From positions 1,890,001 to 1,922,000 of the forward strand of contig NC_011979.1 of NCBI RefSeq assembly GCF_000022265.1: a stretch of 32,000 bases of DNA, written 5' to 3'. A program made the translations under genes and the position numbers. This document shows, piece after piece, positions 12,230 through 32,000 of the stretch (within the stretch, counting starts at the first letter, position 1; every line of letters begins with the position of its first letter). Source of the DNA: Geotalea daltonii FRC-32. GTDB taxonomy: Bacteria > Desulfobacterota > Desulfuromonadia > Geobacterales > Geobacteraceae. The notes below the pieces were generated by a model, which was not told the DNA's origin, ran no database searches, and was given only the letters and a program-made list of their open reading frames with translations.

Positions 12230-12502
12230 ATGGCCACCGATGAAGCGGATCCGGCTACCAATTACGGTAAAGTTTCCACATCCCGAGATATTGGCAGGAT
12301 TATCCGGATGAAAAGAAAGGAAATCGGCGTTCGTCAGGAAACCGCCGCCGGCATGTCGGGAGTGGGAACGAAATTTTTATCCCAGCTGGAGAACGGCAAA
12401 GAAACCGCTGAACTGGGCAAGACCCTGCAGATTTTACGAAAGCTGGGCCTTGAAGTATACGTGTTTCCCCGTTCCCGAAACCCTCTCAGGGGGGATAAAT
12501 GA
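12230..12502 (+). CDS. hipB: XRE-family HTH antitoxin, HipB-like
   Basis: The 90-aa product has the HTH segment RKEIGVRQETAAGMSGVGTKFLSQLENGK. A GGAAGGAGG RBS precedes the start. There is a 4-nt ATGA overlap with the downstream hipA. Confidence 0.85.
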   Translation: MATDEADPATNYGKVSTSRDIGRIIRMKRKEIGVRQETAAGMSGVGTKFLSQLENGKETAELGKTLQILRKLGLEVYVFPRSRNPLRGDK

Positions 12503-13737
12503 GCCGGAAACTGTTGGTGTTCCTGCAGGACAGCTGCGTGGGCGAACTGGTGCAAAGGGGAGACAGTCTCACTTTCACCTATGCCCCATCCTACTTCTCA
12601 ACAAGCGGTTCGCTTCCCCTTTCCCGTCATTTGCCTATTCGAGCGGCGTCATTTGGACATGAAGAGACCCATGCCTTTTTTGCCAACCTCTTGCCCGAAG
12701 GTGCCATGAGGGACTACCTGGCCCGGCAACTGGGAATTTCGGGCGAAAACGTCTATGCTCTTTTGGAAGCCGCAGGGGGCGATTGCATCGGTGCAATATC
12801 CCTGCGACCCGACGGAACCCCAGGTAAAGGAGGGACCTACAGGCCCATTTCCGAAGAGGAGCTTGCCCTACATCTTGACAATCTGCCGGTCTTTCCCTTT
12901 GCAGGTGAGGAAAATGTGCGCCTGTCTCTGCCCGGTGCCCAGAACAAGGTGCCTATTTATTTCGATGGTACCGGCTTCTTCGTTCCAGAGGGTGACTGTC
13001 CGTCGTCCCATATTATCAAGACACCCATAGAAAAACTGGATGACACAGTCGTTAACGAGGCCTTCTGCATGACGCTGGCAGCGAGAATAGGCCTGCCGGT
13101 ACCTATGGCCAGGCTTGCCTCCATTGCCGGCCGGCAGGTCTACATGATTGAGCGCTATGACAGGAAAAAGATCGATGGCGCTGTGATGCGGTTGCATCAG
13201 GAGGACTTCTGTCAAGCATTGGGAGTTCCACCGAGGCTTAATAAGTACGAGAAGGAGGGTGGCCCTGGATTTCAGGCCTGTTTCAGGCTTGTCGAGGAGT
13301 GGAGCGATGAGCCGCTGCTCGATACTGGAAATCTGCTGAATTGGGCCTTGTTCAATTTCCTTATTGGCAATGCCGATGCCCACGCAAAAAACCTGTCTTT
13401 CCTGTATGCCGGGGGGACCATAAGGCTGGCGCCATTTTACGACCTCATCAGTACGGCCGTATACCCGCGGGTGAACAACAAATTTGCCATGAAAATGGGG
13501 GGGCAAAAAGATCCGCGATATCTTCAGCAGACTGACCTGCAGCATTTTGCCGCTGAAACAGGCATCAATGTCCGTGCTGTCAGGTCAGCATTCCGAGAGT
13601 TGGCAATGGCTTGCGAACCGCTGGCTATGGCCGTGGCAGAGGAGTTTAGGAAAACAGCGGGTCCGGCCCCGATTATAGATGCGATTCTGAAAATCATTGC
13701 AGAACGCACCGGGAAAGTAAGAGCTTTGGCATCCTGA
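12499..13737 (+). CDS. hipA: HipA-family serine/threonine kinase toxin
   Basis: The product has a HipA N-terminal region, LSLPGAQNKVP, the catalytic GNADAHAKNLSF motif and PFYDLIST. Confidence 0.9.
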   Translation: MSRKLLVFLQDSCVGELVQRGDSLTFTYAPSYFSTSGSLPLSRHLPIRAASFGHEETHAFFANLLPEGAMRDYLARQLGISGENVYALLEAAGGDCIGAISLRPDGTPGKGGTYRPISEEELALHLDNLPVFPFAGEENVRLSLPGAQNKVPIYFDGTGFFVPEGDCPSSHIIKTPIEKLDDTVVNEAFCMTLAARIGLPVPMARLASIAGRQVYMIERYDRKKIDGAVMRLHQEDFCQALGVPPRLNKYEKEGGPGFQACFRLVEEWSDEPLLDTGNLLNWALFNFLIGNADAHAKNLSFLYAGGTIRLAPFYDLISTAVYPRVNNKFAMKMGGQKDPRYLQQTDLQHFAAETGINVRAVRSAFRELAMACEPLAMAVAEEFRKTAGPAPIIDAILKIIAERTGKVRALAS

Positions 13738-13839
13738 GCGAGCAACTGGGAGTGCCCCTGTGCAGCGTTAAGGAACAAAAATTGTTGTTTATGTATCTAA
13801 AAATTTATATAAACGAATATTATGTCATATGGAGGGTCT

Positions 13840-15600
13840 ATGAATCCCATTATCACCGTCTTTGTACTATTTGCGACCCTGTTGCCATTTACAGCATTGG
13901 GTACCACAGGCAACGACAGCTGCCGCAACTGCCATGAGAACCCAACGAGGATGCTCGAATTGGGAGCTCAGGCATTCACCATAACCCAGCAGGACGTGGA
14001 ACAGCAGAGCCACATGCCGGCCACTTGCAGCCAGTGTCATTTGGGAAATCCGGATGGGGCAAGCAAGGATGAAGCGCACCAGGGCTTGGCCCGCCTCATA
14101 CGGGTACGGAAGAAGGGCTTGACCGCGGATATTACCCCCCGCAATGCCCCTTTGGAATACGGCAGTAATGAGATGAACAAGATCTATGTAACAACTGAAA
14201 AGGACGGCAAAAGTATCAAGGATGCCAATGTTGTCGCCCTCTCATGGCATGATAAAAGGACCGACAATCTCACCCAGGACTTCGTCACTCTCAAAAAGAC
14301 CTGTGGAACTTGTCACCCACAACAGTTTGAGGAATTCAGCAGAAGCACCATGGGGACCAACGCCAAACAAACCCAGTACAAAAGCTGGATCGACAAAGAT
14401 CGCGGTCCCCACAATTGCGGAACCTGGTTCGACGGCAATTACGCGGAGATACAGGCCAATACCATGACTGCCATACCCAAAGATGGGTATGCCATCAACC
14501 AGAGGGCCTGCAATACCTGTCATGTCGGCTGCCTTGATTGCCATTTCAATCCGCAGCCGCGGAACGCGAAATTCCCGGCAATTGGTGCCCATAGCTTTGT
14601 CAAAACCCCCACATCCCAGAGCTGCTACGGCAACGGTCGTGCTTCCATCTGTCATGCCGGTCCCGAGGACAGGCGGCGCGGAGCCGGCTACTTTGGCGGA
14701 TCATTCTCTTTCCCCGAGGGGAACAAACCCGATGTTCATGTTGCCGCCAATGTGGGTTGTCTCGATTGCCATGAAAGCACAAAAACCAACAAGTCCCTTG
14801 GCCATGGCATGGTCAAACGCCAGGCCTATGATGCCTGCCCCCGTTGTCATTCCAAGGCCGTAAAGAGCCACGTCGCCTCTGTGCATAAAAACCTGTCCTG
14901 TGAAGCCTGCCATATTCAGCAGGTGGCTGGTTACCAGGGCACCTACTGGGGACCCGGCAAAATAGGGGGGGCCGAGACTGCTTTTCTGAAATACAAGGCC
15001 TATTACGGCATCATGCAGGAGCCGATTCTGATCAAGGACCAGAAAGGGAGATGGATTCCCGTCAAGCCTTTCCCCATGGCCGTCATGAACCAGAAGCAGT
15101 CACCCTACAAGCCGGGGCTGCAGTGGCGTTTTCCCGCCACATTGCCGGATCTGCAGCGGACCGACGATGCATGGGCTTACACCGGCCTCCATGGTGGCTT
15201 GCCTGAGAACAACAAGGCGCTGACCTGGCTTCAGATCGACAAGATGTCCCATAAGCTGGGAAAAGCCCGCAGCTGTGATTCATGCCATGAAGACTCGGCA
15301 GGCAGGCAGTTGCAGAAGGTTTCATGGGATTATTCCGATCCCGGTGCTGCCCCATTCAGTGGGTCCCACACGGTGATCGCGGATAAAACAGGCCTTTACA
15401 TAAAAGGGATAAAAGCAGACGAACCGATAATCCTTGAGAAGGGGTATACTCTATCCGCATTTGCGCCATGGTTCTATCTGAAGGAGATCTGGGCAGTGCC
15501 GGGGGATTTCTCCCTGCCCGCCCTTAAAGACCGGGTGAACTACGACCGGACGAAAGGCAACCTTCCCAGGCTGCGGGAAGATGGGATCGTGCACAAGTAG
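13840..15600 (+). CDS. Exported multiheme c-type cytochrome (9 CXXCH motifs)
   Basis: The ATG at 13840 follows GGAGGG, and a signal peptide is present. The motifs are CRNCH, CSQCH, CGTCH, CNTCH, CLDCH, CLDCH, CPRCH, CEACH and CDSCH. Confidence 0.9.
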   Translation: MNPIITVFVLFATLLPFTALGTTGNDSCRNCHENPTRMLELGAQAFTITQQDVEQQSHMPATCSQCHLGNPDGASKDEAHQGLARLIRVRKKGLTADITPRNAPLEYGSNEMNKIYVTTEKDGKSIKDANVVALSWHDKRTDNLTQDFVTLKKTCGTCHPQQFEEFSRSTMGTNAKQTQYKSWIDKDRGPHNCGTWFDGNYAEIQANTMTAIPKDGYAINQRACNTCHVGCLDCHFNPQPRNAKFPAIGAHSFVKTPTSQSCYGNGRASICHAGPEDRRRGAGYFGGSFSFPEGNKPDVHVAANVGCLDCHESTKTNKSLGHGMVKRQAYDACPRCHSKAVKSHVASVHKNLSCEACHIQQVAGYQGTYWGPGKIGGAETAFLKYKAYYGIMQEPILIKDQKGRWIPVKPFPMAVMNQKQSPYKPGLQWRFPATLPDLQRTDDAWAYTGLHGGLPENNKALTWLQIDKMSHKLGKARSCDSCHEDSAGRQLQKVSWDYSDPGAAPFSGSHTVIADKTGLYIKGIKADEPIILEKGYTLSAFAPWFYLKEIWAVPGDFSLPALKDRVNYDRTKGNLPRLREDGIVHK

Positions 15601-16582: not shown

Positions 16583-19500
16583 ATGTTCTCCTTTTATCAC
16601 AGTCAGCAGGGTGTAGATAATGTCAGTTATTATAAAGGAACTTTGTTTGAGAGCTTACTGCAACAATATTTGCTCTCAACAGGTTTCGAGGTAGAGCTAC
16701 GGAGGAAGAAGAACAGTCTCGAATATGATATTGAAGGCAAGAACGTTATTACCGGCCAGCACGTCATAGGGGAAGCTAAGGCATATGAAAACCCGATCAA
16801 AGGAAAGGAACTCAGTTCATTTGTCGGGAAGCTCGTACCGCTTGGTTTATTCCAAAATCGCGTTCATGGAATATTCCTATCAACATCGTCGCTCACCCCT
16901 GATGCCGAAGATTATTTTTCGACAGTTAAAAATTACGGTATCACCACAAAAAATGGTAGGGAGTTATACGCAGCCATTGAAGCTGCGCTGAAACTACCGA
17001 CATTTATAGGACTGTCAAAAGTAATTGACAGGGCAGGCTACACTCCGATCACCAGCAGTATTCTTACCACCGATACCGGCATTTTTATAATTGTGATCGC
17101 ACGTGCCCACAGTTCGGGCACACCGGCATATTTTACTATTTTTGACGAACATGGACATCAGATTGACGACACCACCTTCATAAGTGCCGTCCGCGAAGCA
17201 GATCAGTCACTCCAGTCGTTGCAGCCCATTCTTCCCAAGAAACAGTCTAAAAGTGTTACGGCTGAACAGGAACGCAGTATTCCCTTTGGATTAACGCTTG
17301 GTGCAGAATGGACAGACTATTGGCTTCCGGCAAGCCCTCAATACTTTGTTGGCAGGCAGAAGTTTGTTGATAAAGTTTTTTCGCTGTTGAACCAGCGACA
17401 AACGCCAAACATCATTCAAATTAAAAGCCGCTCCGGCGTTGGTAAAAGCTCGGTGTTAGCCTACATAGAAAGCTTGTATTCGACGCTTGGCAATATTACC
17501 GAAATTCATGATGCCCGTGATATCAAGTCAGTTCTTGATGTTTTTGCTGTAGTCCAGAGGTTTACTCAATCGGAGCGATTGGCACACGACTTCAAGGAGC
17601 TTGAATCGCAAATTCAAGCATTTTCTGCATCAAACACGGCCGCCCTGAAGCTGTTTTTCGTGGATCAGTTTGAGTCAACATTTCACAATCCCGAAGTTTT
17701 TCATGCTTATGAAAACGTTTTCGACGCCTTCTCGCGCATCGGAAATGGGCTTTACATTCTCATTGCCCGCAAGAACGATCAATTGACGACTTATGACGAT
17801 ACGAAGATAACTCTGGACAAGTTGAATGCAACGTCCAAGTCGTTCGAACTGAAGGATTTTACAAAAGATGAAGCTATACAGCTTATCCGTGAAATTTGTC
17901 GTGAACATACAAAACAGATCGGAAGTGACGTAAGAGCCTATGTTCTCGAATTCGCACAAGGTTTCCCATGGCTGTTGAAACGGACTATGGCGCACATTGT
18001 GCGCCTCGTGAATAAGGGGGTATCGCAAAAAGAGCTTTTCGCAACAGGCTTGAGGCTGGATGACCTGTTTGATGAGGAGTTGGAGGGGCTAGATGAGATC
18101 GAAAGGGATTATATTGCCCGAATTGCCAGTCGCTTGCCTGCAGATTACAACCAACTGCAAAGACAGTTTGATGAAGACCCGTTACTACCAAAAATTTTGG
18201 ACAAATTAACCCGCTCACGACTGCTGCGTCTAACCGGGGCTACCTATGACACCTACAATGATGTTTTCAAAGAATACCTAAAATACAACAAGCTGCCGGA
18301 GTTCAGTTACTTGTGCATCTACAGGCAACCTCCGAGCACTGTTTTAGCAGCATTCCACGATTCATTCGAAAAAGATCCCTTTACTTCGGAAGAGCTGGCA
18401 AAAATCCTGAAAAAGACCCAAGGTAGCGTTTTCAATATCGTCAGGGAGCTCCGAAGTTTTAACCTGATAGTGGCCGATGGCGACAGATGGTGCATACCGC
18501 AAACCGTCAAAGACATATACAATCGCGGCCGCCTTGGCGAATACATCAGACGCCAATTGCTGGAAAATGAGATCGTCTCTCGCCTGATTAGACACATATC
18601 CCAAGATGGCCGATTTCCTAGCGACAGGTTGACCGATTATCTGCAAGAACAATTTCCGTTTATAGAAGCAGCACCAAAGACCTGGGCCATCTATGCAGCT
18701 ATCTTGCGGGCATGGATGACTGAAACCAAGCTGCTTCAATTTACGAATGACTCATATTTAGTGCAGCCTGTCGAAGCTCGTGCCACGCAAATCGAGAACC
18801 TCGGCAATATGATTGCCACTCCAACGCTAGGAAGAAGAGGTGCATACTCACAACACCAATCTTCTTATATATTCTTGCCGAACTGCGCAAATTTAAAATC
18901 TGTGGAGCAGGCGCTTGTCTCCCTGCAAAACGGGGTGCCAATTGCTGAAATAAAGGACCGCACCACCCTGACTGACCTAAGAAATGGCGGATGGCTTATA
19001 AACAATTGCCCAACTTCCGCAACCGGGGAAGAATTTAGAACTCTGGTAAAAGAAGCGATTACGAAGGAATGCTTCAACCCGGTCTGGGAGGCAGTTAGGA
19101 CTGGCCAACCAGCATTGGTGGCTTTCCAGCAGCTGGCAGGTGGATATTCAGAGGAGACCTTGAAATGGAAACTGAAAATGTTAATCAGATGGGCTAAGGA
19201 ACTTGGCATCATTGCAAAAAGCAGGGTTTCCGTTACCACACATAAAAGGATTTCCCGGCCGCTTCATTCAACGCGAAAAGGCACTACCCCGCCTGTGCCG
19301 TCAAAGCCGTCACATCCATTTGAAGGTGTTTCCTACGAGCAAATCAAACACTACATTGAAGAACACTTCCCTAAAGTTAGGGGCGTCACCAGAATTGATA
19401 TTGCTCGCACTAATACTCATGGGTGGGAGATTAGAATCAGGCGACGAGGTAACAACATCAACGAGTTTTTCTCAGATATGGGATCTGGCGGGATCAGGGA

Positions 19501-19822
19501 GGCCTATGAAACCGCGATTGCACGGCTTAACGTTTTGGAGTTGGATGCAAACTTACGTCCATATACTCGTTCAGAGCTTTCAGGTTTGGCTTCTAAACGA
19601 AACACATCTGGCATTGTAGGGGTAAGAAAATCCAAGCGTTCAAACAAAAGCGAAGGGTACGATTCCTGGATAGCTTTTGGAGCACCTCGCCCTGGGGATC
19701 ACATAGTGAAGAGCTTCTCTATCAATAAGTATGGAGAGGAAGAGGCAAAGCGGCTTGCCATTGCGCAGAGGAAGGAATGGGAGGAGCAGATGATGGCGTA
19801 TGAACGTGAGCAAAGAAAATGA
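16583..19822 (+). CDS. Multidomain protein: Mrr-like PD-(D/E)xK nuclease, P-loop STAND/Orc-Cdc6-like NTPase, winged-helix region and two AP2-like DNA-binding domains
   Basis: The 1079-aa ORF lies in AT-rich DNA. Residues 15-130 carry FESLL...EYDIEG...IGEAKAY (D49, E64, K66). FVGRQ starts at aa 255. Walker A is SRSGVGKSS (aa 282-290) and Walker B is LFFVDQFE (aa 357-364). GFPWLL lies at aa 460-465. The AP2-like segments are GVTRI...HGWEIRIRRRG...REAYETAIA and SGIVGVRKS...YDSWIAFG...FSINKYGEEEAKRLAIAQRKEW. Confidence 0.85.
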   Translation: MFSFYHSQQGVDNVSYYKGTLFESLLQQYLLSTGFEVELRRKKNSLEYDIEGKNVITGQHVIGEAKAYENPIKGKELSSFVGKLVPLGLFQNRVHGIFLSTSSLTPDAEDYFSTVKNYGITTKNGRELYAAIEAALKLPTFIGLSKVIDRAGYTPITSSILTTDTGIFIIVIARAHSSGTPAYFTIFDEHGHQIDDTTFISAVREADQSLQSLQPILPKKQSKSVTAEQERSIPFGLTLGAEWTDYWLPASPQYFVGRQKFVDKVFSLLNQRQTPNIIQIKSRSGVGKSSVLAYIESLYSTLGNITEIHDARDIKSVLDVFAVVQRFTQSERLAHDFKELESQIQAFSASNTAALKLFFVDQFESTFHNPEVFHAYENVFDAFSRIGNGLYILIARKNDQLTTYDDTKITLDKLNATSKSFELKDFTKDEAIQLIREICREHTKQIGSDVRAYVLEFAQGFPWLLKRTMAHIVRLVNKGVSQKELFATGLRLDDLFDEELEGLDEIERDYIARIASRLPADYNQLQRQFDEDPLLPKILDKLTRSRLLRLTGATYDTYNDVFKEYLKYNKLPEFSYLCIYRQPPSTVLAAFHDSFEKDPFTSEELAKILKKTQGSVFNIVRELRSFNLIVADGDRWCIPQTVKDIYNRGRLGEYIRRQLLENEIVSRLIRHISQDGRFPSDRLTDYLQEQFPFIEAAPKTWAIYAAILRAWMTETKLLQFTNDSYLVQPVEARATQIENLGNMIATPTLGRRGAYSQHQSSYIFLPNCANLKSVEQALVSLQNGVPIAEIKDRTTLTDLRNGGWLINNCPTSATGEEFRTLVKEAITKECFNPVWEAVRTGQPALVAFQQLAGGYSEETLKWKLKMLIRWAKELGIIAKSRVSVTTHKRISRPLHSTRKGTTPPVPSKPSHPFEGVSYEQIKHYIEEHFPKVRGVTRIDIARTNTHGWEIRIRRRGNNINEFFSDMGSGGIREAYETAIARLNVLELDANLRPYTRSELSGLASKRNTSGIVGVRKSKRSNKSEGYDSWIAFGAPRPGDHIVKSFSINKYGEEEAKRLAIAQRKEWEEQMMAYEREQRK

Positions 19823-25361: not shown

Positions 25362-28300
25362 TTACAGGGTTACGGTTATGTAGTTGTATTTCGTGTCCAC
25401 CAGCACGCCACCTTTGTAGACAAGGACGGTGAGCTTCTTGATGCCGGTGGTGCCATAGGTATGGGGCGCAGTTGCCGAACTGCCGGTTCCCCCCACATTG
25501 GCCAGGACGGTTGAAGTACCGTCAGCCCAGAATATCTTCAGGCTGTCGTGGTCCTTGAGGTTGGCGAAGGTATAGGTATTGGCAACCCCTCGTGTGGCGG
25601 TGGTGGGGGAAATGGTCATTCCGGTCGCCGGTGGATTGACCACATAAAACGATTTTGTTGCCGTGGCAGTTTTTCCTTCCTCATCGGTTACCTTTAGCGA
25701 AACAGTCCAGTTGCCGGTGCTGGTGAAGGTCTTGCTGATGGAAGAGGCGCTGGCCGTGGTACCGTCGGTTATGGTCATGCTGTAGGTAAAAGTCCCATTG
25801 GTGTTGACGCTGGTGTCGGCTGCCAATGTGTACGGGGCGTTGACCAGCAGCTGGTTGCCCGCCGTGTTGGGATCTGCATCGGGGAAGGCTGCGGAGAATT
25901 GGGCCACCGGATTAACCCCTATCCCTACTTTTGTCTGCTGTGCCGGGTCGCCGAAGCTGTTCAGGTAGGCAACCCATGTTTTCCTGTCATTTGTAGCAAT
26001 GGCTACCCCGGTCAGATCAGTGGCTGCGCCAGTGTATGTCTTGTCTACCCACAAAGATCCTGCCAGGCCCAGTGGTCCGACGTCACTCTGTGGATGCAGG
26101 CGGATAGTGTAACCGGGACGTGCTTCGATGAGTAGACCGGTGCCGGCAGCGTTGACCCTGATGCCGAATTCCGGCTGGCCACCGGTGTAAGCGGTGCCGT
26201 CCCAGGTGCCGGTAAAGGAAGTACCCAGGTTGGTCAACAGGCCTGTCATGTCAGTAACCAGTGCAGATACCTGTTTGGTACGGGCTACCACATCTCCCGC
26301 AGCATTCTTCGTCTCGATCTTCAACAGCCAGCCCTGGCTTGTGGTACTGGTGCTGGTAGGTGCCGGGAAGGTGATGGCGGTGCCGGTGATGCTGTTGTTG
26401 AAGGCAGTGTTGCGTGTCTTGAAGGCATTTTCATACAACCCTTCGCTTCTGTCGATGTCGCGGATGGTCGTCCCATTGGAGGCGAATTGAACGGCGATTG
26501 AGCGGACACCGCTTTTCTCCTTGACGCCAGGGTGGAAGTCGGAAGGCTGGGTCGAACCGTTAACGGAGGCAAACGGTGTCACCTGTGTGCCGGCGGTCCA
26601 GGAGATATTAAGGGTATCACCCTTGACCATGAACTTGCCGTTGTAGAAGCCTCCGGCAGCGGTGTCGCCTGCAGTTCCTGCAATTGTATTACTGGTTGAA
26701 CCCTTGTGGCAATCGGCACAACCACCTGCACCCCAGGCCTTAGCCGCCGGGGAGATGTCATGGTTGGTTTTGAAGGTGACCCCCATGAAGGAAAGCCTGG
26801 TCACATGGGTTTTGGTGTTGTCCGATGTCGACCCGGGAGATGCTTTGAGGCCCAGCTGATATTCAAGGTCACGATCAATGGCGCTGAGATGATCGGTAAT
26901 ATCAGCTGCTGTAACAGTGCCGAGCTGTGTCAGTGCCACCAGTGGCTGTCCACTTCTCGGTCCCTGGCTGTAGGTGTTGGCTCTGTTTATTTTGGCCACG
27001 TGGGTCTGGAGCAGTGCATCCATGCCACCCCCCCGGCCGTCGTTGTTGGCGTCGAAGTTGACGTCATTCTTGTCTCTCCAGAAGGCTGACGTGGAAAGGT
27101 TTGCGGCGTAGAGTTTGGTCCCCTGCCAGGACATGAAGTTGTTGTTGGTCATGTTCTGGCGCGTTACATTCTCGTTTTCATGGTCGGCAAGGCGTCCTTC
27201 TGCATCGGTACCGGTGCCGTCAACCATGGCGCCGCCGGTGAAGTTTCCTTTGCGGGAGTGGCAGGCTTCGCAAGCCATGAGGTCGATGTGGCTGGCATTG
27301 GCTACGCCGTTCATGGTGCCGCCCTGTTGGACGATCTTCGCCGTCAGCCCTTTTGCCTGGTGCGATGCTGTCGGGTTCGGTGCGTTGAGGGTGTCGTAGG
27401 TTATTACACTTTGTGTCGTCGGATCATAGTCGCCGCCATAGATATGGCAGCCGGCGCAGTTCTTCGTGCCGTTGTCCGTGCCGTTCCACAGAGACCCGTA
27501 AGGAGCGTTGCCCTTGGCAGGATCGCACTGTCCCAGTTTCTTGGAGTCGTCCCCCGGACTGGCGGCACTGATATTGTTAAAGCCATAGGTGCCCTTGAGA
27601 CCACTGAAGCCGGAAGTCCCCACTTTGGAGTAGTCGGCGTCCTTGCGCTTGTGGCAGCCCATGCAGCCTATGCTGTAATGGATCTCGGAATCGCTTCGCC
27701 AAGAGTCGCCCCGCTTTTTCCAATCGACGGCGTGCTCTGCCATATGGCAGCTGACGCAGTTGTTGGAATCGGGTGTCGACAGAATGTTGGCGGTAACGGT
27801 GCTTGCCAGCTTCAGGGCGGTAGCATCGCCATTGGCCACAACCCTGGTCGCGTCATAGGTGACATTAATGCCGTCCGTGGCAGATGCAGTGCCCAGATGG
27901 GCGCCGGTTACACGGGAGGCATCAAACTTGCCGGTACGAACTGCCTTCTTGCGCTCCTCCCAGGAATAATCCTTCAGATGGCACATGAGGCAGTCCATTT
28001 CCAGGACCCCGGTCTGGCTGTAATCGTTGACGGTAGGCTCGAAGCTGGCAGGACTACCGTCGGTGTTGAAGCCATCTCCCCTGGTGCCATAGCTGTCAAT
28101 AAAATAGTTGAAGGCCGTAACTGCTGCACCGAAGACATAATCGCGCAGGGAAGTTCGGGTTTCAGGGCTCTTGTTGGGGACATACTCGTTGGCGCCGCCC
28201 CCCACATGGCATTCGCCGCAGTCCCGCATGGAACCGGCCATGGAGTTGTCGACCTTCTGCTTGAACAGAATTGCGTCGGCATAATTGAATGGGGTATAGG

Positions 28301-28805
28301 TGCTGAACGGGACTTTTTTGAAAATGGCATTTGTTGCATCATAGGTGGTGCCGGCACCATCCTGAAATAATCTCGCCAACTGGCGAGCAGAGGGTGGTCA
28401 CCACGCCCCCACATGGCCGGGGCCCTGGACCCAGTTCTTGCCCTGGGGGCCGGCGCCGCTGACTACAGGGTCTTTTGAATCATCAGGATTCCAGCTGTTC
28501 CAGCCCCTTTGCTCGTTGGCTGCCAGCTGGGCATGGTAGCTGTGCCGCTCGATCTGGTCGTAGCTTTGCAGTGCCTTGCCTGTGGATGGGGCAATAGTTG
28601 AACCATTGTGGCAGGCTCCACAGGTGTTCTTCATACTGAATGCCTTGGTGCTGCCGGGGGCGATAATATTGCTTCCTGCATCGCGTAACAGAATGTTGTT
28701 ATGGGCAGGGTTGTAGGCCGCAGCTGTTCCGGCAACCAGCAATACTGCACCGGAAATCAGCCCGAGCCTGAATCTGCCCATGGATGAGTTGATCGTTCTC
28801 TTCAT
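25362..28805 (-). CDS. Exported octaheme c-type cytochrome with two C-terminal PKD domains, interrupted by one in-frame TGA (28398-28400): selenoprotein candidate or pseudogene
   Basis: Track ORFs 28398-28805 (signal peptide plus CGACH) and 25362-28379 (7 CXXCH, TTG start, no RBS, no signal peptide) share one frame. They are separated only by TGA plus 6 sense codons. The PKD motifs include WADGTS...APHTYG. Confidence 0.65.
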
Positions 28806-29221
28806 TATCTTGGATCTCCTTTTGTGATTCCGGTTTCAGTAACCTGTTGCCGGGTTCAGAATTGTTTTCACTTTTCAACCATTCTGAAAATCGGGTCCTC
28901 CTTCCGGAAAATGATTCCCGCTCCCGTTGGGGGACAGGATGCGGGCACTTGAGCCAAACGGAACAAGAAAGCAACTGCTGCCATATAAGCAGGAATTAAT
29001 CCAGAAGAGTGGTTGATGCGTCGTAATATTTCTTATGAATCCATTGCTTGAACTTATAATTTTGTCGTTGTTGGGGGCGTTGCAGAATTTTTAGAAGCAA
29101 ACAGCCTGCAGATTGGGAAAGGCCAAAACAGGAGGTGGGTGAAAATGTGGGGGATATGCCCCAGTTAGGATGTTCCATGGTTATAGCACCGGTAATCCTG
29201 GTGGTTTTGCCTGTAATTAAT

Positions 29222-29272: not shown

Positions 29273-32000
29273 TTACTGCAGGGTAACGGTTATGTAGTTG
29301 TACTTCGTGTCCACCAGCACGCCACTCTTGTAGACAAGGACGGTGAGCTTCTTGATGCCGGTGGTGCCATAGGTATGGGGCGCAGTTGCCGAACTGCCGG
29401 TTCCCCCCACATTGGCCAGGACGGTTGAAGTCCCGTCAGCCCAGAATATCTTCAGGCTGTCGTGGTCCTTGAGGTTGGCGAAGGTATAGGTACCGGCAAC
29501 CCCTCGTGTGGCGGTGGCGGGGGAAATGGTCATGCCGGTCGCCGGTGGATTGACCACATAAAACGATTTTGTTGCCGTGGCAGTTTTTCCTTCCTCATCG
29601 GTTACCTTTAGCGAAACAGTCCAGTTACCGGTGCTGGTGAAGGTCTTGCTGATGGAAGAGGCGCTGGCCGTGGTACCGTCGGTTATGGCCATGCTGTAGG
29701 TAAAGGTCCCATTGGTGTTGACGCTGGTGTCGGCTGCCAATGTGTACGGGGTGTTGACCAGCAGCTGGTTACCCGCCGTGTTGGGATCGGCATCGGGGAA
29801 GGCGTCAGAGAACTTCGCTACCGGATCTGCGCCTATGCCCAGGGCCGCAACATTGTCACCGATGCTGAGCAGGTAGCTCAGCCACTGGCTACGTGTGTAG
29901 GACCCATTTGCTCCGGTTCCACCGGGGGATGTGCCGTCTGCCTTGAAATATCCGTCAGCATCGGGGTAGAGGGTCTCGCCACGATCCAGGTCCTTCGTCC
30001 GGGTATAGGCAATGCTGTTTTCAACGACCTCTTCCTCAAAAGCAACGCTCCGTGGCTGACCGAGCTTGTTGAAGAGTTCGGTGCCGGTACGGAGATCACC
30101 CTTGTAGGCCTTGATGGTCGGGATGAATACCGCCGGCCTCTGCATCATGGTTGAGGCGGTTGCAGGGATGATGCTGGGGGCCGGTGTCCAGGTGGCGTCG
30201 GCGGGGATGGCGGTGCCGGTCATGTTGAAGCCCCCGTCAAAGAAGTTTTGGGAGGTTGCATGACAGTCGCTGCAGCCGTAGACGGTAACCTTGCCGGAGG
30301 CATCGAAGGCGCGGGGCTTACCCAGCGCATACTGGGCGACGCCCTTGACCCCATGGGTCACCTGGTAAAGGCCGCCGATGTAATCAAGCCGGGTGCCTTC
30401 CCAGGATCTACCCGATTGACCGGGCTTATCTTTGATGCTGGTTCGGTAGGTCTTATAGTCCCTGATTTCGTCAGGGGTGGTGAAGATGGCGTTGCCGCCG
30501 TAGACCCCGACATACTTCCAGGCGCCGGTGAATGAGCCGTCGGCGTTGTAGGCGCTCTGGTACTTTCCGCCGGTTACACCATCACCTGCATTGCCGAAAC
30601 CGACCGGAATAGGAGCAAAACCTCCGGGGGCAAAATTAATCCCGGCCTTCAGGTCGCGCTGGATCCACGGGTCGAAAATGGGCTCGCCAAAGCCCTGTGT
30701 GGAATTGGCATCACCAACGGTCAGAATCTGTCCGTTGACACCGTCACCGTTAGCGTCAACGGCGGTGTTTTCATCGTTGTTGAACAGTGCCGAAACAATG
30801 GTGTTGGTCAGGTAAATCTTGCGCCTGAAATTGGGGCTGGTCTTGAGACCATTGCCGACCTTGGACCAGGTTCTAAGCGGCAGCCATTCCTGGAGCGCGC
30901 CGCCGATCACGTGGGTACCTGTCGGGATCTCGGCCTGGAAGCCGGGACCGGGCTGGCCGGTAGCCGTGCAGATGGTGCCGGGACCGCTCGATGAAGTGTA
31001 GCCGCAGTTGGTATTGATCATGGAATTCATGAAGTTGTACTGCTGTCTTGCCCCTTCGTTTGCAGCTTCAGTGGCAGGATCTTCGAACATGCCCATCATG
31101 CCTTTGCTGTAATCGAAGCCGACCATGGTCGGGTAGCGGTTGCCGCTGGTGCAATCCAGGGCGCGAACAGCCATGCTCTTCTTCTGTACGTGGCAGACGG
31201 TGCAGTCGATGACGTCCAGATGGCTGCCCGGAATGAATTTCTGTCCACCGCTGCCGTCGGGGCCCATGGCCCTGGCGATCATGGCGGTCAGACCCGCTTT
31301 CTGATGTGCTGCTGTGGCATCCGGCGCATTAAGGTTGTCAACGCTGTTGCCGTCCGGATTGGTGCCGGTAACATGGCAGCTTTCACACCGTTTGACGGTG
31401 TTGCGTGTATCGATCTTGGTTCCTATCTGTGAACCGTCCTCAATGGTGCCGGAACCGTCGAAACCACGCCCCGGGTCGCATTGATTCTTGTCGGAATTGG
31501 AGCTGTTGGTGTCCATGTGGCAACCGGCGCAGCCGAACTGGGTGTGGACATCCTGACCGGCCTGCCATGCGTCCCCACGCTTGAACCAGTCTGCCCGCGG
31601 GAAGGGAACGACCGATTTCTTCAGGACGTTCTGGTTCTGTTGCCCGGGGTAATCTGCCGTGAGTCCGATATCGGTAACGGGGGCCTCATAGAAGATGGGG
31701 CCGCTGCCACCCTGGTTGTCGCCGCCGAAGGAGGTCATGCCGTTGACGGTCGTTCTGTTGTAGACGGTGGAACCCTGGGCGGCAAGCAGCCCTTTCACCA
31801 TGTAGCTGTACAGATTGGTGGCGTCAACGAGCGGAGATTTGACGGTATTGGGCAGCCATGGCGAATTGAAGTCATAAGCGGGCATGATCAGGCCGGTTGG
31901 CCCTACCATCGGATTATTCGCGTTGGTATTGAGGATCATTGGCGCCGAGGAGAGGAAGCCGTTCATCATGTCGGGCAGATCCTTCATATTGTTCGGGCTG
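29273..32000 (-). CDS. Multiheme c-type cytochrome with two C-terminal PKD domains, paralogue of 25362-28805; 5' end lies outside the window
   Basis: The frame stays open to position 32000 (SPNN precedes the track Met). CAGCH, CESCH, CTVCH and CSDCH fall within the window. The shared blocks W.KRGD.W, QCDP..G and LNAP...A.HQ.GLTA align with the paralogue. Confidence 0.85.
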   Translation of the reverse strand, partial: SPNNMKDLPDMMNGFLSSAPMILNTNANNPMVGPTGLIMPAYDFNSPWLPNTVKSPLVDATNLYSYMVKGLLAAQGSTVYNRTTVNGMTSFGGDNQGGSGPIFYEAPVTDIGLTADYPGQQNQNVLKKSVVPFPRADWFKRGDAWQAGQDVHTQFGCAGCHMDTNSSNSDKNQCDPGRGFDGSGTIEDGSQIGTKIDTRNTVKRCESCHVTGTNPDGNSVDNLNAPDATAAHQKAGLTAMIARAMGPDGSGGQKFIPGSHLDVIDCTVCHVQKKSMAVRALDCTSGNRYPTMVGFDYSKGMMGMFEDPATEAANEGARQQYNFMNSMINTNCGYTSSSGPGTICTATGQPGPGFQAEIPTGTHVIGGALQEWLPLRTWSKVGNGLKTSPNFRRKIYLTNTIVSALFNNDENTAVDANGDGVNGQILTVGDANSTQGFGEPIFDPWIQRDLKAGINFAPGGFAPIPVGFGNAGDGVTGGKYQSAYNADGSFTGAWKYVGVYGGNAIFTTPDEIRDYKTYRTSIKDKPGQSGRSWEGTRLDYIGGLYQVTHGVKGVAQYALGKPRAFDASGKVTVYGCSDCHATSQNFFDGGFNMTGTAIPADATWTPAPSIIPATASTMMQRPAVFIPTIKAYKGDLRTGTELFNKLGQPRSVAFEEEVVENSIAYTRTKDLDRGETLYPDADGYFKADGTSPGGTGANGSYTRSQWLSYLLSIGDNVAALGIGADPVAKFSDAFPDADPNTAGNQLLVNTPYTLAADTSVNTNGTFTYSMAITDGTTASASSISKTFTSTGNWTVSLKVTDEEGKTATATKSFYVVNPPATGMTISPATATRGVAGTYTFANLKDHDSLKIFWADGTSTVLANVGGTGSSATAPHTYGTTGIKKLTVLVYKSGVLVDTKYNYITVTLQ

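Follow-up and report, generated by a model that had tools for sequence, protein, structure and literature searches.

The stretch analysed here, called the window throughout, comprises 32,000 nucleotides (nt) of Geotalea daltonii FRC-32 (NC_011979.1, 1,890,001-1,922,000), and coordinates are given within it. On its minus strand lie two adjoining open reading frames (ORFs) of 135 and 1005 amino acids (aa). The initial annotation had described them as a single frame interrupted by one UGA, with a signal peptide and the first CXXCH haem-binding motif in the smaller ORF, and this layout proved right in every detail by sequence and translation (Table 1). The 135-aa ORF begins with MKRTINSSMGRFRLGLISGAVLLVAGTAAA/YNP..., ends with ...GPGHVGAW followed by TGA, and is 100% identical to the database protein 'cytochrome c, 1 heme-binding site [Geotalea daltonii FRC-32]'. 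Past the UGA the same frame runs PPSARQ-L(TTG)ARLFQDG... and continues for 1011 further codons in all to a TAA. Translation of the joined frame gives 1147 residues, in agreement with the length of about 1147 aa estimated earlier, with exactly eight CXXCH motifs (aa 62, 196, 272, 350, 381, 450, 512, and 696) and one extra cysteine at aa 427. From the comparative evidence given below, the two annotated "genes" are with high probability one gene, encoding an exported eight-haem cytochrome in which the UGA specifies selenocysteine (Sec).

Comparison of homologues at the UGA codon carries most of the argument. For this purpose 56 loci (L numbers below) were fetched from GTDB species genomes and translated through the stop; they contain 57 homologous sites and, together with the window, make 58. 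The draft Geotalea toluenoxydans locus (L002) is frameshifted and was used for the sequence around the UGA only. The aligned codon is TGA in 55/58 sites, TGT (Cys) in 1/58, and GAT (Asp) in 2/58, and TAA, TAG, or TGG was found in none of the 58. The TGT site is that of a Desulfocapsa locus (L023, GHVGKW-C-PPSARQ), and both GAT sites represent one Malonomonas rubra paralogue seen twice. A second Cys form was found in the full-length library protein P0098 (1418 aa, SPGLSGGW-C-PSSARQMARLF), and Asp occupies the Sec position also in P0105. The alignment of orthologues thus gives TGA 55 times, Cys in two cases, Asp in one lineage, and Trp never. The reading frame is kept across the UGA in 55 homologous sites, and in nearly all loci one frame reads signal peptide ... 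GKNWVQSPGH[VF]G[KSAN]W - stop - PPS[AGS]RQ[LAFM]AR. These Sec sites form 24 clusters with less than 60% N-terminal identity, and the lineages bearing the UGA are Geobacter, Geotalea, Geomonas, Malonomonas, Desulfuromonas, Desulfuromusa, Desulfobulbaceae, Desulfocapsa, Desulfurivibrio, and others.

The sequence around the codon is conserved as well. In alignment A9, which consists of 22 diverse fused sequences, the residues K, W, V, G, H, G, W, U/C, P, P, S, R, and Q are invariant, and the block tops the conservation of the N-terminal region. Codon variation after the UGA is confined to third positions (columns 12, 15, and 18 of alignment A2). TGA makes up 40% of the long-ORF stops in the same loci, and the true terminators of these genes in the 56 related loci are TAA 34 times, TAG 9 times, and TGA 0 times. 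The last figure may mean that a further UGA is avoided in an mRNA in which Sec is decoded. A stop codon that is TGA without exception, rare replacement by Cys, and strongly conserved flanks make up, at the level of sequence comparison, the classical signature of a selenoprotein gene.

Public records split the locus into 'cytochrome c, 1 heme-binding site' or 'cytochrome C' on the one hand and 'PKD domain-containing protein' on the other. A query consisting of the first 581 joined residues returned 86 homologues, almost all of which cover the post-UGA part only, and many of these begin with (M)ARLF, (M)ARIF or similar. The N-terminal part as query returned 59 database homologues, all of them short (115-296 aa), with no full-length fused form among the 59. 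Likewise, in an exhaustive HMMER search of the 135-aa ORF against 1.84 billion representatives, about 24 of 30 matches are ORFs of 100-170 aa that stop exactly at ...W.

Termination at the UGA would yield a small exported monohaem cytochrome and a separate large protein started at the TTG, perhaps by translational coupling. Such a division matches the GenBank and RefSeq annotation, and a TTG does stand six codons past the stop in 48/58 sites. In 9/58 sites, however, the position is occupied by TTT, GCG, CTG, TCA, or TGG, and the six supposedly intergenic codons between UGA and TTG are invariant at the protein level, with variation in third positions. The downstream ORF contains seven CXXCH motifs and, as had been pointed out earlier for this TTG-initiated frame, has neither a signal peptide nor a Shine-Dalgarno (SD) sequence; alone, it could therefore not be exported for haem attachment. 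Furthermore, fused full-length homologues with Cys or Asp exist, and the internal stop is always TGA, yet the same genes never end in TGA. Two separate genes are thus a very improbable account of the locus.

The RNA past the UGA reads CCACCCUCUG CUCGCC AGUU GGCGAG, that is, a perfect 6-bp stem set off from the UGA by 10 nt, and the hairpin of 6 bp and 4 nt first proposed from the letters of the window could be placed at 28387..28372. When a 39-nt segment was folded alone, exactly this hairpin was obtained at -10.8 kcal/mol (z = -2.2; 7/200 shuffles as stable). Its significance derives from conservation and covariation across homologues, the first of which the initial annotation had left to a comparison of orthologues. 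Over 49 distinct sequences the stem is paired in 89.8% of cells, slid controls gave 29-65%, and 0/500 shuffles reached the observed value. Two compensatory changes were found in these sequences: U-A is replaced by G-C in 10 rows, and C-G by A-U in 5 rows and by U-G in 3. The changes are informative because each pair joins a synonymous third position (Ala GCU/GCG, Arg CGC/CGA) to the initial base of a partner codon, which is altered (AGA to CGN/CAU, GCG to UCG). Position and length of the hairpin are the same in both paralogue types described below, and more divergent members retain it with a slightly shifted register. A long-range pairing around the UGA in a 96-nt fold was excluded from the element, its sequence not being conserved beyond close relatives.

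In bacterial selenocysteine insertion sequences (SECIS) of the Escherichia coli fdhF type, the stem starts ~11 nt after the UGA, and its apical loop is small and has a G some 20 nt away from the UGA. The window hairpin is similar in lying within the coding sequence directly 3' of the UGA, in a stem that starts from the 11th nt, and in a loop (AGUU) having a G and a U. It differs in that the stem has no bulged U, is only 6 bp long, and has no conserved lower helix. Taken together, codon conservation, the Cys forms, and the conserved hairpin favour the Sec recoding that had been offered as one of two options for this locus.

In the mechanism proposed here, the UGA (28400..28398) would serve as a Sec codon and the downstream hairpin as a bacterial SECIS. 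The hairpin would recruit SelB with Sec-tRNA(Sec), upon which the ribosome would insert Sec136 and continue. A single polypeptide of ~1147 residues would result, exported by its N-terminal signal peptide for haem attachment at all eight CXXCH motifs. It would comprise a small one-haem N-terminal segment ending in GKNWVQxPGHxGxW-U-PPSxRQ, a seven-haem core whose fold may remotely resemble that of octaheme tetrathionate reductase (OTR), and a third part of beta-sandwich/PKD domains typical of surface proteins. SelB- and SECIS-dependent insertion of Sec136 in a gene of this single structure is, on the comparative evidence, a reading that we hold with high confidence. The tryptic peptide across the predicted site would be NWVQGPGHVGAW-U-PPSAR, with NWVQSPGHVGSW-U-PPSAR as its counterpart in G. 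sulfurreducens.

Several observations weigh against Sec insertion. In the sequence of the window alone, the hairpin is only mildly unusual, which is suggestive but not decisive. The stem coincides with the codons of the peptide ARQLAR, which is conserved in non-Sec homologues too, and the Asp form still has a hairpin, as does the Cys form, where it is shorter; part of the hairpin conservation could therefore be an effect at the protein level. A distant homologue of the same N-terminal layout, P0085 (852 aa, metagenomic), has Tyr in place of Sec (GRW-Y-PYAYRQLAKK) and ends in a membrane cytochrome b domain (PF01292). As this Tyr form keeps RQLA, the peptide is maintained at the protein level in the absence of Sec too. 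Conservation of AG in the loop is not independent evidence either, since a conserved Gln codon fixes it. No Rfam match to the hairpin was obtained, whether the whole window was searched at gathering thresholds or 28300-28450 at E <= 10, a silence that is uninformative because Rfam returned no bacterial SECIS match. The base directly after the UGA is always C, and UGA-C is a leaky termination context. Lastly, no tRNA and no selA, selB, selC, or selD was found within the 32-kb window, and the Sec machinery of the strain is reported in two literature statements.

Regarding these statements, Geobacter sp. FRC-32 is taken by us to be G. daltonii before its renaming, which fits the name of the database protein. 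Fujita et al. reported Sec insertion machinery in Geobacter sp. FRC-32, and also in G. metallireducens, G. uraniireducens, D. acetoxidans, and the delta proteobacterium MLMS-1 (PMC1914089). Zhang and Gladyshev described a NifS-SelD fusion with a Sec-containing CxxU motif in Geobacter sp. FRC-32 only (PMC2398784).

The leaky context would also suit a selenium-free read-through of the UGA by a near-cognate tRNA, for instance that for Trp, which would leave a standard residue at position 136; here the hairpin could merely slow the ribosome. The C in question is already fixed by the invariant Pro codon, though, and no homologue with TGG was found, whereas Cys, the residue that usually stands in for Sec in evolution, occurs twice. 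The stem-loop, moreover, fits the bacterial SECIS consensus. Added to this, the family is found in Sec-using lineages, and G. sulfurreducens is a proven Sec inserter in MccSep (PMC13510729). Read-through of this kind is accorded only a slim chance. A recent nonsense mutation or a sequencing error, the other option of the initial annotation, would need only a single transition from TGG to TGA next to a preceding TGG codon, but such a pseudogene is refuted by comparative data and has next to no probability left: the same TGA is present at 55 sites over many lineages with no TGG among them, both flanks of the UGA are under purifying selection, and the same ORF with the same downstream ORF is found in independent assemblies of two sequencing runs (L057, L058), which makes a sequencing error unlikely.

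Table 1. Features of the predicted selenocytochrome gene and its upstream paralogue (positions within the window).
Feature	Position	Strand	Description	Basis
Recoded gene, complete	25362..28805	-	ATG, in-frame UGA, and TAA in one frame; 1147-residue precursor	Sequence, translation
Shine-Dalgarno-like AGGAG	28816..28820	-	10 nt before ATG	Direct sequence reading
Start codon	28805..28803	-	ATG	
Sec-type signal peptide	28716..28805	-	aa 1-30, ...AGTAAA/YN; sole export signal of the whole protein	Sequence; cleavage inferred from AxA
Haem-binding motif 1	28608..28622	-	CGACH, aa 62-66	Translation; invariant in alignment A9
Best-conserved block of the N-terminal region	28371..28442	-	GKNWVQGPGHVGAW-U-PPSARQLAR, aa 122-145, Sec codon central	Alignment A9
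In-frame UGA	28398..28400	-	Read as predicted selenocysteine 136	Comparative codon counts
SECIS-like hairpin	28372..28387	-	5' arm CUCGCC 28387..28382, loop AGUU 28381..28378, 3' arm GGCGAG 28377..28372	
TTG codon	28377..28379	-	Used by gene callers as start of the '1005-aa ORF'; would be an internal Leu codon within the hairpin	
Haem-binding motifs 2-8, cytochrome core	26706..28220	-	CXXCH at aa 196, 272, 350, 381, 450, 512, 696	
Cys427	27525..27527	-	In LGQCDPAKG; only Cys outside CXXCH	Translation
PKD domain	25644..25874	-	Within the beta-rich C-terminal third	Pfam PF18911, E = 4e-8; PDB PKD-domain matches
Terminator of joined frame	25364..25362	-	TAA	
Tandem upstream paralogue	29273..32000	-	Cut by the window edge; N-terminal part and its own expected UGA outside the window	

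The domain composition of the joined protein was examined by profiles and structure models. In the window protein, Pfam recognizes a PKD domain, segments similar to cytochrome c7/c3, and an MtrC/MtrF domain close to threshold, and no NCBIfam family was found for it. For P0035, a core-only homologue that starts just past the Sec position, the AlphaFold model has a predicted local distance difference test score (pLDDT) of 89 and a predicted TM-score (pTM) of 0.90, and 1SP3 is its sole significant match in Foldseek against the PDB (E = 1.1e-6, 468 columns). The corresponding profile, TIGR04315, with a cutoff of 375 bits, gives 29.3 bits (E = 4.4e-7) for P0035, 13 bits for P0098, and no match for the window protein. 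As judged from the models, the core may be remotely related to the catalytic multihaem enzyme OTR, as a distant relative and not as a member of the OTR family.

OTR (Shewanella oneidensis SO4144, PDB 1SP3, TIGR04315) is a catalytic multihaem enzyme acting on sulfur and nitrogen compounds. The window family resembles it in eight CXXCH haems, in the model match, and in the weak profile match; OTR differs in having ~440 residues and no PKD/beta-sandwich extension. Its active-site haem in SO4144 has Lys56 as ligand together with C74xxC77H78 (PMC3769277). Some members of the OTR family are annotated in GenBank as selenoproteins according to a 2026 review (PMC13188914).

The closest precedent for a cytochrome of this kind is MccSep. 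The RefSeq product name given in the initial annotation is real: NF040886, 'multiheme c-type cytochrome (seleno)protein ExtKL'. ExtKL is MccSep (GSU2937-2936), the polysulfide reductase of G. sulfurreducens, in which Sec has been proven experimentally (PDB 9wt8; PMC13510729), and elemental sulfur respiration was shown in 2026 to require MccSep. Its likeness to the window family extends to several features: both are exported multihaem c-type cytochromes of the same bacterial group with a single UGA and a stem-loop, both were long annotated as two genes, Sec has no nearby Cys and is followed by Pro (DG-U-PTPNR in MccSep, W-U-PPSAR in the window family), and Cys forms are rare. The two also differ, and a relationship in sequence is not detectable. 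MccSep has five haems in ~450 aa, with Sec325 in a C-terminal Ig-like domain past all haems, and is periplasmic, whereas the window protein has eight haems in ~1147 aa, with Sec136 between haem motifs 1 and 2, and C-terminal domains of PKD type. The window protein does not match the ExtKL model NF040886 (cutoff 250 bits), for which P0035 scores 6.8 bits, and ExtKL can therefore serve as a precedent only. The MccSep chains 9wt8/9wt9, although present in the PDB library, were not found by the family profiles, A9 included (E <= 10).

The lack of a cysteine near Sec had been remarked upon earlier as an unusual redox context. It is true of the sequence, but it is not unusual, as the partner Cys of MccSep is 86 residues off. 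In MccSep, Sec lies far from any Cys in sequence, works with a haem-ligating Cys, and cleaves S-S and Se-O bonds (PMC13510729). In the window protein, Cys427 is, from its sequence context, a candidate haem ligand or Sec partner; the motif around it reads GHDPAKG in the Desulfuromonas and Desulfobulbia branches.

A third comparison is with the MtrC/OmcA proteins (PF22113), multihaem cytochromes on the outer surface in porin-cytochrome conduits, to which the Ext/Pcc clusters of Geobacter belong. The window protein scores 29.3 bits, just under the 30-bit cutoff, and the paralogue 18.9 bits; a DmsE-like periplasmic cytochrome, NHL proteins, and a possible porin are nearby in several genomes, and the C-terminus is Ig-like/PKD. 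In contrast to MtrC/OmcA, with ten haems, the window protein has eight and is no lipoprotein, and we know of no Sec in MtrC/OmcA proteins. The C-terminal Ig/FN3/PKD-like modules, together with the gene context elsewhere, suggest a surface-exposed partner of a porin-cytochrome conduit.

As for the literature on selenoproteins, the May 2026 review of prokaryotic selenoproteins contains three cytochrome-related families only, namely ExtKL, the GSU2204 family, and octahaem cytochromes of the OTR family. The window protein does not match the model of the GSU2204 family of CXXCH-containing selenoproteins (NF041027). No family such as the present one is mentioned in a 2022 review or in the text of the BSepDB paper, and the stop-codon mining study that first flagged ExtKL contains that cytochrome cluster only. 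The 'cytochrome c family protein' listed among selenoproteins in the 2022 review was considered as a possible entry for the window family and ruled out, the 2026 review showing that the entry is ExtKL. Within the limits of the searchable literature, the family would be an uncatalogued one; Sec recoding and multihaem cytochrome selenoproteins as a kind are already known.

What the protein does can be proposed only by analogy. We tentatively suggest a redox enzyme located beyond the cytoplasmic membrane, with Sec beside a haem as its nucleophile; its most plausible place would be the cell surface, as the outer partner of a porin-cytochrome system. A catalytic selenolate near a haem is favoured because the Sec-Pro motif is the most conserved one of the N-terminal region, because of the mechanism of MccSep, and because of the OTR-like core. 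Likely substrates, by analogy with MccSep and OTR, would be chalcogen compounds such as polysulfide or elemental sulfur (S0), tetrathionate, and selenite. A more speculative and rather doubtful extension is that a third group of multihaem-cytochrome selenoenzymes is present here, independent of the other two and the first to act at the cell surface, with Sec136 at the distal face of a c-haem of the OTR-like core. Within that doubtful extension, and at no better odds, Sec136 might be a selenolate beside the lone Cys or His of the G(Q/L/M)CDPAKG/GHDPAKG loop, or else a direct axial ligand. By the same long shot, Geobacter, Desulfuromonas, and Desulfobulbia could reduce insoluble or polymeric chalcogens (S0/polysulfide, selenium species) or minerals extracellularly, and the W-U-PPSARQ and W-U-SPSLRQ types of paralogue could, just as questionably, have diverged in substrate.

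The structural side of this proposal meets with contrary observations. The TM-scores between the P0035 model and 1SP3 are low (0.26/0.36) and the root-mean-square deviation is 10 Å. In the AlphaFold model of the Asp-form homologue P0106, the N-terminal 120 residues, including Asp117 as the equivalent of Sec, have pLDDT <50, as does the GHDPAKG loop, and Foldseek returned Ig/FN3/PKD matches only. Similarly, sequence profiles against the PDB (E <= 10) found PKD domains only and neither OTR nor MccSep. The Asp at the Sec position in some paralogues also speaks against a strictly chalcogen-requiring role, at least of those copies.

Immediately upstream of the predicted selenocytochrome gene lies a tandem paralogue. 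The initial annotation had pointed to its upstream part as a place to look for the aligned residue, and its orthologues in two other species do carry an in-frame UGA and hairpin of their own. In G. toluenoxydans (L002 2590-3528) the orthologue reads ...AMWGKW-TGA-SPSLRQVANLM in one frame, with a hairpin UUCGCC-AGGU-GGCGAA. In G. sulfurreducens PCA the two types, GHVGSW-TGA-PPSARQLARLY and AMYGKW-TGA-SPSLRQVANLM, lie ~6 kb from each other, and both have a hairpin; the copy of paralogue type lies at L059 14307-14830 and has a 6-bp stem. The consensus of the paralogue in the two species is ..M[WY]GKW-U-SPSLRQVANLM with loop AGGU. As the paralogue orthologues of both species carry UGA and hairpin, the family would have at least two Sec-containing subtypes, both in the best-studied Geobacter. 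By the sequence comparison, the same selenoprotein is very probably conserved in many sulfur- and metal-respiring bacteria and widespread in Desulfuromonadia and Desulfobulbia.

Some further observations concern the copies themselves. The last ~530 nt of the tandem paralogues in the window (25365-25900 and 29279-29815; the PKD/C-terminal part) are 96-100% identical, and the genes are otherwise highly diverged; in sequence, the near-identical 3' ends look like a recent gene conversion. Malonomonas rubra DSM 5091 has at least four paralogues within ~27 kb of one contig (L016/L024/L055), three with UGA and one with Asp (GAT), the latter retaining a 6-bp hairpin with loop AGCU. In the draft of Geotalea toluenoxydans JCM 15764 (L002) both cytochrome genes are split into several frames, most likely by assembly frameshifts. 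A 6.3-kb contig binned as Thiobacillaceae (L008) carries a typical copy of the Geobacteraceae type with UGA, and is possibly a binning error.

The gene context differs between genomes. In G. sulfurreducens (L059 = AE017180.2:3532421-3548834), Geomonas paludis, a Geobacteraceae metagenome-assembled genome (MAG), and a Desulfuromonadales MAG (loci L004, L005, and L009 beside L059), three genes in conserved order precede the selenocytochrome: one for a ~680-aa protein that matches no known family, one for a beta-propeller protein of NHL type, and one for a multihaem cytochrome similar to DmsE. A response regulator and a histidine kinase are encoded downstream on the opposite strand. The ~680-aa protein is a possible porin candidate. 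The GSU3218-3233 cytochromes, which are reported to be induced by hematite and magnetite (PMC4070692), lie in roughly the same region as the G. sulfurreducens copies, with which they might be linked. In the window, the neighbours of the selenocytochrome are the paralogue and a LysR regulator, and it does not stand in such a cytochrome cluster. Another multihaem cytochrome (13822-15600, plus strand; 592 aa, cytochrome c7/paired CXXCH) lies ~10 kb from the selenocytochrome with unrelated genes between. Elsewhere in the window, a HipA-family toxin kinase is encoded at 12499-13737 (plus strand), and the gene at 16583-19822 (plus strand), for a 1079-aa protein that unites a STAND NTPase and an AP2 domain with a restriction endonuclease domain of Mrr type, resembles a defence gene.

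For extracellular electron transfer and for the respiration of sulfur and metals, Geobacter and its relatives serve as the main models, and catalogues of their cytochromes have been drawn up repeatedly. In the databases examined, the entries of this family are nonetheless a tiny 'cytochrome c' and a headless 'PKD domain-containing protein', despite two copies in G. sulfurreducens PCA, and annotation pipelines have no model for the family. Knock-out, proteomic, and expression studies that handle the halves separately would misread the gene. If Sec is inserted as proposed, selenium supply may limit a respiratory function so far unlinked to selenium. MccSep is the only characterised multihaem selenoenzyme, and a second family, with larger and probably extracellular members that have an OTR-like core, would be a testable lead on how these bacteria may handle insoluble sulfur or selenium species, or minerals.

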